From Candidatus Hydrothermarchaeum profundi (GTDB lineage: Archaea; Hydrothermarchaeota; Hydrothermarchaeia; Hydrothermarchaeales; Hydrothermarchaeaceae): a stretch of 64,000 bases of DNA. The stretch lies in NCBI GenBank assembly GCA_002011125.2, contig MTMF02000009.1, forward strand, positions 224,001-288,000. The letters run 5' to 3'. The translations under genes and the position numbers were made by a program. The notes beneath the pieces were generated by a model, which was given only the letters and a program-made list of their open reading frames with translations, was not told where the DNA came from and made no database searches. Positions 15,778 to 60,339 of this stretch are shown here, in pieces. Each line of letters opens with the position of its first letter. Within the stretch, counting starts at the first letter, position 1.

Positions 15778-17166
15778 ATGGAGTATAGAACGAGAAGTGG
15801 AAATGGGAAGATCATCAGCATGAAAAAAAGAGAAATAGTACGAGAAATAGAGGACGGAATAAACGATGCAACTGAACGCGCTGATATCGAGCCCCTGTCA
15901 GATTCTGAAGTTGAACATCTATTAGATATCCTACTCCAGAAAGACAAAGTAATAACCGTTAAAGCCGGAGACGAAGTCATTCTCACAAGAGATGGAGGGA
16001 CATTGAAGTATACCGGCTGCACCCGATATAGCGGCGTCCCATTATCAAGAGAACAGGCAGTGTGGGTTGGAGAGAGGATTCTCAGTCTTGATACTATGGA
16101 ATTGGGGCATATAGATTATAGTATCAAACCGGTTAAACCTATTGCTCATGATGAATCGAGTGTCCTCGAGAATATTTTGCTAAGCTCCATTATTCCTATC
16201 TTCTATGGAGCCATGCCAAACCTAGGGCTTTACTTCACTTCGCAAGGAGGGCAGTTTCCAGATTACTCAGCCTTAATGAACAAAGGAAAATTCAAAGAAT
16301 CTCAAGAAGCACTTTATGAAGCAGCCCAGAAGTTAATAGAGGATATAAAGTATGTTTCTAAAGTATTCTCTAAATCAGGAACTGATGGAATAAATCTAGA
16401 TACCGCAGCTGCTGCTGGCGACGCTGAATTTTTTGCTACGTTAAATGCAGTAGAGTTCATTAGCAGAGAAATTAAGATACCAGTACAAATTGGAATGGCA
16501 TCGGAACAAGTACTAGGTCTCCACTGCGAGCTAAAATACAAGGGGGAACTATTGGCAGGGGCATATCCACATATACAAGGAAAGCTAGCTGAAAGAGCTG
16601 GAGCCACTATATTTGGGCCTGCAATAAATACTAAGGTCTCTAAGTCTTTTCCATGGAACCTTGCTAGAGCGCTTACCTTCGTGAAGAGATGCATAAAGGA
16701 CTTAAAGATACCCATCCATGTTAACATGGGGATGGGAGTAGGAGGGATTCCTATGAGTGACGTGGCTCCAATGGACTCGGTTTCTCGGGGGGCTAAGGCT
16801 ATGATAGAGATAGCTAGAGTTGACGGCATATAGCTAGGAGCAGGAGATGTTGGAGGAGTAGACATGACTTATAGGGTATGCTCTGGCATGGGGGGAATAA
16901 GAACTTCTGGAGACCTAGTTGCTCGAGTGCAGCTGAGTAAAAAAGTGAAACTAAAAAAAGCTAAGGAATATGTAGCAAAAAAACTGGGTGTCGCCGTTGA
17001 AGTCTTATCTGACGAGTTCGGTATGAAAAAAATTAGAGAGGAATTAGATATCGGTTCTCCATTGGCTACCACATATAAATCGAAGGGTATAATCGCCAAG
17101 AAAAATATCGCAGAGATACTCGATCTGCCTATACCCTCTGTAGAAAGATCCTTTATTTCTTCATAA
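15778..17166 (+). CDS. mtbB: Dimethylamine:corrinoid methyltransferase-like protein, pyrrolysine read-through at TAG 16831-16833 (462 aa)
   Basis: ORFs 15778..16833 and 16864..17166 are in frame across one TAG: ...NMGMGVGGIPM...ARVDGI-[TAG]-LGAGD...SGMGGIRTSGDLVAR, matching the MtbB DGI(O)xGxGD Pyl site. Confidence 0.88.
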
Positions 17167-50018: not shown

Positions 50019-50837
50019 ATGGAGATCATAACTTCGTATAGACAAGCTCGTTACAATTTCTATAGATGGAGATACGAATCAGGATTTGTGTATAAATTGG
50101 CATTAGCTTTTATGTTTGCCGGATTGACAGGTATTGGAGCTCAGATAAGGATACCCCTCCCTTTTACCCCAGTGCCAATAACTGGCCAAGTCTTTTTTGT
50201 CCTACTTAGCGGCGTAGTACTTGGAAAATATGGCGGACTAAGTCAAGGAATTTACGCTGGGTTAGGGGGCGCTGGTATACCTTGGTTTAATGGTATGAAG
50301 GGAGGCTGGGGTGTTCTCACAGGCGTTACTGGCGGGTATATTCTAGGATTTATCCTTGCAGCAAGTCTCATAGGATGGTTTGTAGATAACTATACTAGGT
50401 CAAGGACTTTTTCTTTCCAATTATCCCTCATGTTCTTAGGAGTAGCAGTTATATATGGACTGGGATCCTTACAATTCTCGCTTGTGTTAGGTACTGGTTT
50501 CAATGAAACTCTTACAAAAGCTGTTTTACCATTTATTCCTGGAGATATTGCTAAAGCCGTGGGGGTAGTGCTTCTAGCAACTGCTATTCTTCCTAAAGAA
50601 AGCTACAACGGAGAAGTGGATTTTGAGTCTACTTCCCATGATAGGCGCCGCCTCTATATGGCCGGGTTTGTTTTTAGTGGATTACTGACATGTTTCTTTT
50701 TACTTTTGTTCTGGGCTAAAATTGTGAGTTTAGGTCAAGCAAATAATTTAATAGTTTTAAAAAACAGCGCTTGGTTTTCTTTATCAGCATTAATAACAGG
50801 GCTTCTCTCTCTTCATTTTTTAAAACTCCTCAGGTAG
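50019..50837 (+). CDS. bioY: Biotin transporter BioY with C-terminal extension
   Basis: PVPITGQ, TGGYILGF, PFIPGD; adjacent to birA. Confidence 0.9.
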   Translation: MEIITSYRQARYNFYRWRYESGFVYKLALAFMFAGLTGIGAQIRIPLPFTPVPITGQVFFVLLSGVVLGKYGGLSQGIYAGLGGAGIPWFNGMKGGWGVLTGVTGGYILGFILAASLIGWFVDNYTRSRTFSFQLSLMFLGVAVIYGLGSLQFSLVLGTGFNETLTKAVLPFIPGDIAKAVGVVLLATAILPKESYNGEVDFESTSHDRRRLYMAGFVFSGLLTCFFLLLFWAKIVSLGQANNLIVLKNSAWFSLSALITGLLSLHFLKLLR

Positions 50838-50888
50838 ACGCTTAAATAAGAAATATCGCTTGATAAAAAACACTTAAGTAAAATTAGT

Positions 50889-51045
50889 GCGGATTCGGAC
50901 GCAGCCGAAAGGTTTGGCACCGTTTGGTCCGAAGACCTTGGGTGCTTTGCCTTTCAGACAGGTGATACCTCCGGAGAGGCATTCCTGTCGCTCGTAGCGG
51001 TTTATCCGAAGACGAACCGCTGCGAATCACTACACCCGAATCCGC
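50889..51045 (-). ncRNA. Unidentified four-way-junction structured RNA (~157 nt)
   Basis: About 57% GC (90/157) in AT-rich flanks; 16-bp closing helix plus three hairpins, each capped by C(UNCG)G on the minus strand; TATA box 23 nt upstream. Confidence 0.8.
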
Positions 51046-51068
51046 AAATAGTTGTTGAATTTTATTAG

Positions 51069-51078
51069 TATATATTTA
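51069..51078 (-). promoter_or_regulatory. TATA box for the ncRNA
   Basis: Minus strand TAAATATATA ending 23 nt before the first G (51045) of the closing helix. Confidence 0.6.
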
Positions 51079-51135
51079 TTGTTATTTGTAAACCTTTACT
51101 TCCTCTGAAGCATGTGGAAAAAATGGTAAGAGATT

Positions 51136-52218
51136 TTATATCCAGTCCTTAGATTCTAATTTCTGAGGCAAATACACATCTGTCATAAACGTTATTCCAT
51201 GCTTGGCTAGTGCCTGGAGTTCCGCCTTTTCTCCTCTGCTTATCATGAGCTGAAGCTCTTTTCTCCATTTCTTGTTATTTTTTATCCAAGGATACTCCAG
51301 CATTTTCTGGGCTTTTTTCAAATCCCATTCAGTCATCTTCAGACGGGCTGCCTTAGGAACATTAAATTTGTCTAGGTCACTTGGGAGTAGACCCAAAAGC
51401 TTTGCACTAGGTACGGCGAGATATGCGCTTTCAAAACTTAGTGAGATGCTTCCTCTCTTATAACTTGAACATATTTGCATGCCATAGCTATCGCTGTCTG
51501 TTAGAACATAAACGGGGAGCTTTTCCTCTTTATTTAATCTCCTTATAAGCCTCCTAGTAGCAATGTCAGGCTGTCCTTTTCCGGTGATTAAGAGACATTT
51601 ATTTTTTTTATGGAAATCTTCTTCTATTAATCGTATTAGTGCGGCATCTTTTTCCACTACTAAAATGTAATCCGCTCCGCAGTCTATGATTTCTACTTCA
51701 TCTATAAATGGGCTTATTGACCAGCCGCCTCTACCAAGACTGTTACAGTTGAATGTATCGTTTCCTTCTCTTAAGGTGAGATCCCCTATGCATACGCCCT
51801 TAGCCGAGGCAACTACTCTTAGGCAGGGACGGGTGACTCCGAGCGTCACTGCGATATCTTCTATTATATTGTCACTAGTTTTTTGGTCCTTATTGAAGAG
51901 CTCTGGATCTTGGTAATAAATCTCGCGTTTAGTCAGATGTTTTTCTCTTTCAGCGCTTTCATAAAGTATGCTCATTACATAAAGCATTTGAGTAAATGCT
52001 GTCACTGTTCCGGTATTATGGAAGCTCCTCTGAGACATGCTTTCTCCAATATAAATCAAATCCTTTTTTTCATCGTAAATAAAATTGTCCGCCCCTCGGG
52101 TGGGAACATTAAAAGCCGGGTTTTTTCTGCTTCTTATGTCTCTTGCTATTCCTTTTGCTACTCGCTTTAGCTCCCTTACAAGCTCGCGTGCATCCATTTT
52201 TTCTTTTATTTTTTTCAT
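51136..52218 (-). CDS. top6A: DNA topoisomerase VI subunit A
   Basis: REIYY catalytic Tyr, VVEKDA, TGKGQPD, DSDSYG toprim motif, KAELQA. Confidence 0.9.
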   Translation of the reverse strand: MKKIKEKMDARELVRELKRVAKGIARDIRSRKNPAFNVPTRGADNFIYDEKKDLIYIGESMSQRSFHNTGTVTAFTQMLYVMSILYESAEREKHLTKREIYYQDPELFNKDQKTSDNIIEDIAVTLGVTRPCLRVVASAKGVCIGDLTLREGNDTFNCNSLGRGGWSISPFIDEVEIIDCGADYILVVEKDAALIRLIEEDFHKKNKCLLITGKGQPDIATRRLIRRLNKEEKLPVYVLTDSDSYGMQICSSYKRGSISLSFESAYLAVPSAKLLGLLPSDLDKFNVPKAARLKMTEWDLKKAQKMLEYPWIKNNKKWRKELQLMISRGEKAELQALAKHGITFMTDVYLPQKLESKDWI

Positions 52219-52219
52219 T

Positions 52220-54109
52220 TTAACCCCCCGTTAAAGTCGCTTGCACAGCTATTGGCCTTCTCCTGCGGATTTCTTGAACCAGTGGCTTATAGATTCTCTC
52301 TTTCTTCTCACCGGTCATTTTAGATATCGATTCCGATACTATCTCAGCATGCTTTTCTAGGAATTCCCTCGCTTTCCCTGAAAGTCTGTGTTTCTCCATC
52401 ATGCTAACATGTTTCCTAAGCTTTCTACTAGCCGCCTGTAATGCCCTTTTTATTTCCTCAGCTATAACATCATCCGCCCCAATCGCCTGTTTAGCTACTC
52501 CTAGATACTTGAGCTGTGGTGATGTAACATGAACTACGAAGATAACAGGAGCGCTTGGAAGTGATCCTTTTTTTCCTAGCTTATAGAGAGACCAGTCAAT
52601 TTCTCTCGCTGTTTGAGTGATGATATCGCTTCCAAACTCATATATAAGGGGAGTGCAATTAGCAATTCTTATTAATTTATCTTGGTCTCTAAGATCCGGA
52701 GAAATCTCCCCCCCATACATACCGAGAACCTGAACCTGAACTGGTCTTCCACTAGTGCTGGTCGGCTTCCTTTCCACATAAACATGTTTCTCCGGGTTAT
52801 AAATCGAGACAAAGCCTCTTATTAAGGTTTTTTTAGGTATGGGCATAAGAGAATCCATTGGTGGCGAAGGAAAAGACATTGACCTCAGAGTTTCAGCGAC
52901 TAGCCTAACTTTTTTTTCATCGTTTAATATCATGTTTACAGTAGTTTTTTCTGTAAAAATCTGCTTCGGTAAAGGTTGACCATCAAGCTTGAATAACTTC
53001 TTCAGTTCATTATTGTCGAGAGACCTAATGTTATTGCTAAGTTTACCGCTTATGTAGAGTTTCGCTGCATAATCGCGATCAATATCTACGTCCCTAACCA
53101 GAGTTTTTAGATAAGCACTAATCTTTTCAGGACTCTTTTTAAGTTCTTTAACCTTCTCACTTTGAGCTATTCTCTTGACAATGTCTCCTGCAAAGAAATT
53201 CTGTTGATCAAAATATTGAAGTATCGTAGCTCTCTCTATAAGCTCTTTTATTTTCTTATCGCCGATCCGGCAAAAGTTCTTTTTAAGAAATCCTGCTAAA
53301 GAAATACTTCTTATCCTAGACTGATATGCTAGCAGATCCTTTAATTGACCTATGTCTACCGAGTTAGGATGTGGAGGAACGGGAGCAGGTATCGGTATTC
53401 CCTCGCTTGTTCTTTTTTCATATTTAGTTATGTTTCCATTTTCTTTTAAGATAAAAGTTATATAAGGATGGATTGCCGCCATTCTCCTAATAAACTCTAT
53501 AATATTACCCCGAGCTCGGGAGTAATCCCCTAAGAGAGTTAGAGAGACTCTAGTTCCATGCTCTGGAAATTCGCCTTCATAGGGCTCTTCAACTACCTTG
53601 GTTACTTTGCCCTTACCATAGTCGTAAACATGGCGATGGGCTATTTTTTCTGTAAAAGTTTTACTTATAATTTCCATAGGCTTACCGGTGCTTTGGCTTG
53701 CATATATAGCGGCAGCTTTCCATCCTATACCCTGCTGAGACCTACTAGCTTTATATTCGATTGTACCTGTGCCACCTGCTCGAACAATGATTTGAACCTT
53801 ATTTTTCGGTATTCCTATTCCATTGTCCTGAATACTGATTTGCAGTTCTCCCCGAGATTTATCAACTACTGAAACGCTTACCATAATTTCAGCATTATAA
53901 TCGTCATTCCCAGTTGACCTCAATAATACCTCTCTAGCCTTATCAATAGCGTCTGCTGCATTTTGAACCCCCTCAACGACTGTTTGAAACGGTGCCCTAG
54001 CCTTTTGCCCGAAACCTGTATCAACTCTTTTTAAAAGTTCTTCAGCGGATTGAAGCCGGATATGGTTATGGATCTGCTCTTCTGCTTTTTTCCTTGAAAT
54101 TTTTTTCAT
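52220..54109 (-). CDS. top6B: DNA topoisomerase VI subunit B, divergent
   Basis: GHKL motifs EGVQNAADA, DNGIG, SRSQQGIG, HGT; PHP; R.AN.TPL; WSLY; switch Lys in GVAKQAI. Confidence 0.85.
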   Translation of the reverse strand: MKKISRKKAEEQIHNHIRLQSAEELLKRVDTGFGQKARAPFQTVVEGVQNAADAIDKAREVLLRSTGNDDYNAEIMVSVSVVDKSRGELQISIQDNGIGIPKNKVQIIVRAGGTGTIEYKASRSQQGIGWKAAAIYASQSTGKPMEIISKTFTEKIAHRHVYDYGKGKVTKVVEEPYEGEFPEHGTRVSLTLLGDYSRARGNIIEFIRRMAAIHPYITFILKENGNITKYEKRTSEGIPIPAPVPPHPNSVDIGQLKDLLAYQSRIRSISLAGFLKKNFCRIGDKKIKELIERATILQYFDQQNFFAGDIVKRIAQSEKVKELKKSPEKISAYLKTLVRDVDIDRDYAAKLYISGKLSNNIRSLDNNELKKLFKLDGQPLPKQIFTEKTTVNMILNDEKKVRLVAETLRSMSFPSPPMDSLMPIPKKTLIRGFVSIYNPEKHVYVERKPTSTSGRPVQVQVLGMYGGEISPDLRDQDKLIRIANCTPLIYEFGSDIITQTAREIDWSLYKLGKKGSLPSAPVIFVVHVTSPQLKYLGVAKQAIGADDVIAEEIKRALQAASRKLRKHVSMMEKHRLSGKAREFLEKHAEIVSESISKMTGEKKERIYKPLVQEIRRRRPIAVQATLTGG

Positions 54110-60265: not shown

Positions 60266-60339
60266 TGCGGTGGGCGAGATTTGAACTCGCGACCATTAGA
60301 TCTTCAGTCTAACGCTCTCCCAGGCTGAGCTACCACCGC
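60266..60339 (-). tRNA. tRNA-Phe(GAA), no intron, CCA not encoded
   Basis: GCGGTGG TAGCTCAGCCTGGGAGAGC G TTAGA CT-GAA-GA TCTAA TGGTC GCGAG TTCAAAT CTCGC CCACCGC A. Confidence 0.97.

Follow-up and report, generated by a model that had tools for sequence, protein, structure and literature searches.

To our knowledge, few families of structured non-coding RNA are known in Archaea beyond the universal RNAs and the guide RNAs. HgcC, HgcE-G and SscA are GC-rich orphan non-coding RNAs of AT-rich thermophilic archaea. Perfect four-helix junctions, for their part, are found in RNAs as disparate as U1 snRNA, the hairpin ribozyme and twister-sister, and several ribozymes and riboswitch aptamers are likewise four-way junctions. 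On the side of gene expression, an upstream element coupled to a TATA box is the promoter arrangement of the eukaryotic Pol III type-3 genes, whose products include the Y, vault, 7SK and U6 RNAs.

The RNA described here lies in the window, by which we mean the whole stretch of 64,000 nucleotides of Candidatus Hydrothermarchaeum profundi DNA that was analysed. It recalls the orphan RNAs in its composition, the perfect-junction RNAs in its geometry and the Pol III type-3 genes in its promoter, and it belongs to none of the catalogued RNA families. Its host is a member of the Hydrothermarchaeota, a phylum of uncultured archaea of the deep subsurface and hydrothermal vents. In the portions of the literature covered by our search, nothing was found on non-coding RNAs of this phylum, and no structured non-coding RNA family had been described in it before; the passages covered of one preprint (10.64898/2026.10.21.760802) mention neither the phylum nor a four-way junction. 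The RNA is the type of a new family, the newness being claimed for the family and not for a biological role.

Structure and conservation of the RNA

The minimum free energy (MFE) fold of minus-strand positions 51046..50888 is a four-way junction, in which an 18-bp closing helix is followed by three tetraloop-capped arms, with at most one unpaired nucleotide between any two helices (Table 1). The folding energy of the slightly longer segment 51050..50885 (-) is -87.0 kcal/mol, as compared to -49.7 +/- 3.9 in 200 shuffles (z = -9.46), none of which equalled it. The plus strand of the locus has a weaker fold, at -81.8 kcal/mol, with P1 down to 11 bp. All four helices of the original prediction are recovered on the minus strand, both in the sequence and in the MFE fold, and its 16-bp P1 with three G-U/U-G pairs proves to lie within the 18-bp helix; its estimate of about 57% GC in AT-rich flanks likewise agrees with the values of 0.57 for the RNA and 0.30-0.31 for the 150-nt flanking windows, the genome as a whole standing at 0.391. 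The likely start of the transcript is near G51045/U51046 and its end at A50888, followed by a short U tail. Of the 5 sequencing runs returned for this sequence, none is listed as an RNA run.

Table 1. Coordinates of the RNA gene, its parts, its flanking signals and the co-directional genes upstream of it (positions in the window)
Feature	Position	Strand	Remarks
RNA gene, covariance-model span	50887..51047	-	161 nt; full-length R1/R2/R3 matches, G000:C9:274887-275047 (-)
P1 5' strand	51029..51046	-	18 bp with 50888-50905, three G-U pairs; MFE fold
P1 3' strand	50888..50905	-	partner of 51029-51046; MFE fold, covariation
P2 arm	50990..51028	-	hairpin, C(UUCG)G cap at 51010-51007; MFE fold
P3 arm	50957..50989	-	internal loop (A / CA), C(UCCG)G cap at 50975-50972; MFE fold
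P4 arm	50906..50956	-	basal helix GAAAG/CUUUC, two internal loops, C(UUCG)G cap at 50933-50930
TATA box AAATATATA	51069..51077	-	centred ~28 nt upstream of G51045; A-rich BRE-like stretch just upstream
T-runs, likely oligo-T terminator	50865..50883	-	TTTT 50883-50880, TTTTTT 50870-50865
Conserved upstream element	51087..51125	-	22 loci aligned, 3 of them poorly
top6A	51136-52218	-	upstream of RNA, co-directional
top6B	52220-54109	-	upstream of RNA, co-directional

The homologues that we assembled with covariance models (see below) allow this fold to be examined column by column. In the alignment of 25 sequences, 56 of the 62 pairs have changed on both sides, against 24-28 when the partners are slid, these pair counts being made on model-fitted alignments, a fitting that favours structure. 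Of the 1487 pairing cells, 89.9% can pair, against 33-43% with the 3' partners slid by 1-3 columns, and none of 500 shuffles reached any of five covariation measures. The same picture emerges from the alignment of 21 sequences, which leaves out the duplicates L017, L020 and L022 and the damaged copy L042. Because the alignments had been fitted to the model, two RNAalifold controls were run. A free prediction on alignment A5 returned the same four-way junction, with compensation in 47 of 53 pairs, and on a structure-blind MAFFT alignment (24 sequences, 54% mean identity) RNAalifold found 21 pairs, 17 of them compensated, lying in the outer P1, P3 and the tip of P4. Double changes affect 14 of the 15 pairs of P2 (helices 3 and 4), 11 of the 13 of P3 (helices 5 and 6) and every one of the 16 of P4 (helices 7-9). 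Covariation is strong in all four helices by the pair counts and RNAalifold, and the MAFFT alignment recovers part of the fold.

The strand, too, can be told from the alignment: 90.8% of the cells pair when read as the minus strand, as against 77.1% on the complement, and there are 205 G-U cells for 33 A-C cells. It is this large excess of G-U over A-C that fixes the strand, and it bears out the earlier contention that the G-U pairs act on this strand only. Selection thus acts on the fold of the RNA, as read from the minus strand.

Conservation of sequence, in distinction from that of pairing, is concentrated in a few foci, namely the terminal pairs of P1, the GAAAG/CUUUC base of P4, the pairs flanking the junction and those that close the caps. 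In P1, the G-C and C-G pairs at the terminus (columns 3/188 and 4/187) are invariant across all 25 copies, and the A-U pairs in the conserved basal helix of P4 are kept in 17-20 of the 25. The caps are UUCG or UCCG in 9 of 21 copies for P2, 17 of 21 for P3 and 15 of 21 for P4. The internal loops of P3 and P4 remain purine-rich throughout, while their sequence and size vary from copy to copy. This variation lends no support to the proposal that the symmetric CAAA/CAAA loop, one of the two purine/A-rich internal loops of P4, is a guide or binding pocket. The alignment contains no conserved unpaired stretch suited to antisense pairing and no loop core of the ribozyme or aptamer type. The traits by which the family can be recognised, all present here, are the four covarying helices, the ends UGCG...CGCA, the GAAAG/CUUUC base of P4, and a TATA box and T-run of its own.

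Comparison with catalogued RNAs

A scan of the whole window with the 4227 families of Rfam 15 at gathering thresholds produced no match to the RNA, its only hits being a tRNA at 60266-60339 and PYLIS_2 at 16831-16930. When the threshold was relaxed to E <= 10 over 50600-51400, two weak snoRNA-like matches appeared, both outside the RNA. The description of the RNA as unrecognised thus holds at either threshold. The more specific statement that it is not 5S, SRP, RNase P, tRNA, C/D or H/ACA RNA is upheld by Rfam together with ARAGORN, and the universal RNAs are located elsewhere in the genome: RNase P RNA at C9:1404584 (241.9 bits), SRP RNA at C9:1184100 (244.9 bits) and 5S rRNA at C9:503101 (96.9 bits), each above its cut-off. 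ARAGORN lists 45 tRNAs in the genome, none of them at this locus, and the Rfam tRNA model matches the window only at the site given above. As for a C/D-box or H/ACA guide, no snoRNA-type model overlaps 50887-51047 and no conserved GA/AG K-turn is visible by eye.

Two of the weaker signals in the window deserve mention in their own right. The PYLIS_2 match (the mtbB pyrrolysine insertion element, plus strand) scores 36.1 against a gathering score of 36, and ARAGORN places a tRNA-Pyl (CUA) at G000:C9:1321583; on these two observations, the archaeon probably decodes pyrrolysine. A match to snoU2-30 at 50725-50792 (-), antisense to the 3' coding end of BioY, scores 26 bits (E 0.013) where the gathering threshold is 60, and is probably due to chance.

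Distribution and copy number

A BLAST search with 166 nt of the locus found no relatives in the family (0 of 3 genomes) or the order (0 of 34), and covariance models were needed for this reason. Plain sequence patterns did little better: in trials, those specific enough for use caught no more than 7 of the 25 known copies. A model of the single sequence and its fold (R1) picked up 8 further genomes of the order with full-length matches (E values from 1e-10 to 1e-17). A second model (R2), built from the resulting 10 sequences, extended the family to 18 of the 35 genomes of the order, the same 18 being the tally for the phylum, which is represented by 38 species genomes in the collection searched. 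A third (R3), built from 21 distinct sequences, was positive in 21 of these 38 and in none of 113 other archaeal genomes sampled, this search being one in which only 19 candidates per genome were scored, under strict filters. In total, the collection of homologues from related genomes, called for by the original prediction, has provided 25 full-length copies, 144-166 nt in length and with a GC content of 0.46-0.67, in 21 of the 38 genomes. They are spread over 13 of the 21 genera of the phylum, with none in its 3 genomes outside the order; among the genomes searched, the family is found only in Hydrothermarchaeales. From these counts of genomes and genera, the family is widespread but patchy within the order.

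The patchiness was followed up in five RNA-negative genomes of 96-99% completeness, which yielded no true copy when searched again with up to 150 candidates each. One R3 match, in G009 (16.9 bits), was set aside as a false positive, lying as it does inside the reading frame of an ABC ATPase and folding no better than its shuffles (z = -1.2). The lack of a copy in 17 of the 38 genomes therefore means either that the RNA is dispensable there or that it has diverged beyond the reach of the model.

The 2.19 Mb genome of the window holds one full-length copy, and other genomes have one or two. A single copy argues that the locus is no MITE, and the many dispersed copies by which such a repeat would have betrayed itself are not seen. 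Four genomes have two copies each: G024 (L014/L015), G027 (L034/L044), G031 (L035/L043) and G032 (L038/L045). The second copy has clearly diverged in three of the four, where it is also richer in AT (GC 0.46-0.48); the two of G024 are nearly alike and could reflect a mixture of strains in the bin. In the copy of G030 (L042:1501-1650, -), which has the lowest score at 50 bits, some 16 nt are missing from the 3' side of P4, and this copy is either decaying or the product of an assembly error. In the genus g5, the basal part of P2 is absent from all five copies (L039, L040, L041, L046, L048; GC 0.62-0.67), from which it follows that the base of P2 is dispensable.

Promoter, terminator and genomic setting

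A TATA-like box is present at about -28 in all 25 copies, in keeping with the promoter of its own that had been ascribed to the RNA. It is strict in 17 of them, in the sense of an all-A/T 8-mer starting between -36 and -24, and in the other 8 a TTATA-like core is recognised by eye. At the opposite end, 23 of the 25 have a run of at least four Ts no more than 15 nt from the 3' terminus. Farther upstream, at about -100 to -35, most copies share an element of roughly 35-65 bp with the consensus ttcca-N8-..TcCA...Gaa.CA..gGAAg..aAgGt.g, whatever the adjoining genes. This element has no consensus RNA fold on either strand in the alignment of its 22 loci from which the poorly aligned L038, L043 and L044 had been dropped, and it was not found before the 45 tRNA genes of the genome. 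A pattern that fits 19 of the 22 element copies has three matches in the own genome, one at this locus and two inside coding sequence, and scans of the genome with a PWM and with the pattern gave chance matches in coding sequence plus one weaker intergenic look-alike. We infer that the element acts at the DNA level as a control element specific to the RNA gene. A TATA promoter, a T-run terminator and the conserved upstream element accompany the gene at its varied sites. The flanks on the two sides pair no better than shuffled flanks in 23 loci (z -2.2 to +1.9), which disposes of a processing stem formed by them.

Two observations on the upstream element concern other transcripts. The element opens with the T-run TTTTTTCC (window 51122-51128, -), about 8 nt past the stop codon of top6A, and TTTTTTCC could double as the terminator of that gene. 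Outside the window, at L051:673-810 (G000:C9:392372-392510), lies the best intergenic non-self match of the PWM, scoring 20.7 as against 33.3 for the element itself and having GGAAATAAAGGTT-N4-GATAGAAAA in common with the promoters of the RNA genes. About 26-30 nt past the motif, a hairpin (MFE -24.5, z -6.1) encloses a C/U-rich loop of 30 nt, and neither an Rfam match nor a BLAST homologue in the order was found for it. This candidate, at L051:746-808, may be a further small RNA under a promoter of the same type.

In the window, the RNA starts 89 nt past top6A, and on its other side 50 nt separate it from the end of BioY, which is convergent. The original prediction had top6BA divergent from the RNA and asked whether the two stay linked. 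The genes are not divergent, since both lie on the same minus strand as the RNA, and the linkage is not supported: among 18 top6A loci taken from named genome records, with flanks of differing length, only 3 have the RNA in their flanks. These 18 relatives are 72-88% identical to the Top6A of the window. The neighbours vary across the copies, taking in top6A, BioY/BirA, MscS, an ArgZ-like protein, a JAB protease, a HEAT-repeat protein, RACo and an OB-fold protein, and synteny around the copies points to no gene as a constant neighbour or partner. Most copies are followed by a gene that is either convergent or unrelated, and the T-run comes directly after P1. With no recurring class of downstream gene and termination right after P1, a riboswitch or other cis-regulatory leader was rejected.

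A proposed scaffold role and its alternatives

On the evidence of the sequences, the locus very probably is a real, expressed gene for a structured RNA. For the explanation as a whole, in which a free-standing gene specifies a stable structured non-coding RNA of a new family that works as a ribonucleoprotein (RNP) scaffold, we see an even chance. The protein-scaffold mechanism in itself, that is, a small RNP RNA under dedicated transcriptional control, is derived wholly from the pattern of conservation, and we hold it as a tentative proposal whose probability falls a little below one half. That pattern is one of conservation in the junction-adjacent helices and at the end of P1, not in single strands. 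A perfect junction, inert caps and conservation confined to the junction and the terminal helix together point to a shape-specific partner.

By this proposal, transcription would begin at about G51045, and the primary transcript would need no 5' processing and would end in a short U tail. From the position of the TATA box and of the T-run after P1, we infer that this transcript is already the closed four-arm body. The inert UNCG caps and the long closing helix would make that body rigid and nuclease-resistant, and it would serve as the scaffold of a small ribonucleoprotein, being recognised by its shape and by a few helical sequences. Its partners may read its conserved sequences, among them the basal GAAAG/CUUUC helix of P4, the invariant GC/GC terminus of P1 and the pairs next to the junction, together with the purine-rich internal loops, and a dedicated DNA-binding factor at the upstream element would control its synthesis.

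The conservation pattern also bears on the other roles that such an RNA might have. A trans-acting regulatory sRNA that pairs with mRNAs through a loop or an opening helix would well account for a free-standing gene with its own, apparently regulated, promoter, and four genomes have two diverged copies, as is often the case in sRNA families. However, about 124 of the 161 positions are paired, no single strand is conserved, most of the hairpin loops are UUCG or UCCG and the internal ones are variable in sequence, and we regard this role as decidedly unlikely. Were the junction core instead the active site of a new ribozyme or the pocket of a trans-acting ligand sensor, the strong conservation of the junction-proximal nucleotides would be expected, as would the four-way architecture that several such RNAs share. 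Against this, the conserved positions are Watson-Crick paired rather than loop nucleotides, the internal loops are unconserved, no ribozyme or riboswitch model of Rfam matches and no conserved gene lies downstream to be regulated; the idea is quite improbable. Improbable, too, is a tRNA-like mimic acting as decoy or substrate for RNase P, tRNase Z, CCA-adding or modification enzymes. In its favour are the closing of the four-way junction by the two ends of the RNA and termini of the form GCGG...CCGC followed by A in 18 of the 25 copies, which resemble those of the genome's tRNA-Phe. This resemblance was part of the original prediction, and it stands in so far as GCGG...CCGCAC matches GCGGTGGT...CACCGCAC, but only 4 bp are alike. 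Moreover, neither ARAGORN nor the tRNA model of Rfam calls the RNA, P1 has 18 bp and not 7, and D-, T- and anticodon-type loops and junction linkers are all wanting. The tRNA-like end processing once suggested for it is also at odds with a predicted start at the foot of P1, which would leave RNase P no leader to remove.

That there is no RNA gene at all is hardly credible, whether the signal be put down to a cis element of the neighbouring genes, such as a terminator or 3' UTR, to a palindrome in the DNA, to a repeat or to a small ORF. The location between top6A and the convergent end of BioY would suit the first of these, and a 48-aa ORF does overlap the locus. Yet the neighbours differ among the 25 copies, the genome has a single one, the G-U pairs are asymmetric between the strands and the flanks pair no better than shuffled ones. 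The small ORF was rejected in its own right, since every reading frame is interrupted in at least one copy and, in L045, all six contain stops. The remaining probability falls to an explanation not yet thought of.

A bolder version of the scaffold proposal would see in the RNA the archaeal equivalent of the small RNAs that eukaryotes transcribe from Pol III type-3 genes. It would then be a lineage-specific RNP RNA whose 35-65-bp element is read by a specialised transcription factor and whose four-helix junction is the platform for a protein machine or for a new catalytic activity. We consider this unlikely; if true, it would add to what is known of Archaea both an RNP and a mode of gene-specific promoter recognition that are new. 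Independently of function, the family is well defined by its 25 copies and compensated pairs, which makes it fit for an Rfam entry, and its members are short enough for structural work. The conserved upstream DNA element provides a handle on gene-specific transcription control in Archaea, and the RNA would improve genome annotation at a locus that is otherwise an empty intergenic gap.

Relationship to known RNA systems

Each of the RNAs that come closest to this family has features in common with it. Like tRNA (RF00005), it is a four-way junction whose 5' and 3' ends pair to close it, with G-C-rich terminal pairs followed by an unpaired A, and it is encoded by a free-standing gene that has a promoter to itself. 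In contrast to tRNA, a cloverleaf of 70-95 nt, it is twice as long, its closing helix has 18 bp where that of tRNA has 7, its junction is without linkers and its arms end in three UNCG-type caps where tRNA has its D, anticodon and T loops. Like it, U1 snRNA, the hairpin ribozyme and twister-sister have at most one unpaired nucleotide between their four helices. U1 snRNA is also of similar overall size, whereas the archaeal RNA has neither a 5' single strand nor an Sm site. The two ribozymes, for their part, have active sites formed by conserved internal-loop nucleotides, which the archaeal RNA does not have; its P3 and P4 internal loops vary, no Rfam model matches it and, on its sequence, it would not be a ribozyme of the hairpin or twister-sister type.

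HgcC, HgcE-G and SscA, with which it was compared by the Rfam scan, resemble it as GC-rich structured islands in AT-rich genomes, with free-standing genes and orphan functions; they differ from it in fold, it matches no family in that scan even at E <= 10, and among the genomes searched it is found only in Hydrothermarchaeales. The Y RNAs and the bacterial YrlA, which are bound by Ro60, were rejected as an identity for it, since there is no Rfam match and no TROVE/Ro protein (PF05731) in any of the 38 genomes of the phylum, a search in which the controls, Deinococcus and Bacteroides, were detected. In general design, like a Y RNA, it is a small stable RNA with a long terminal stem formed by its paired ends, and its gene, too, is headed by an upstream promoter element and a TATA box and closed by a T-run.
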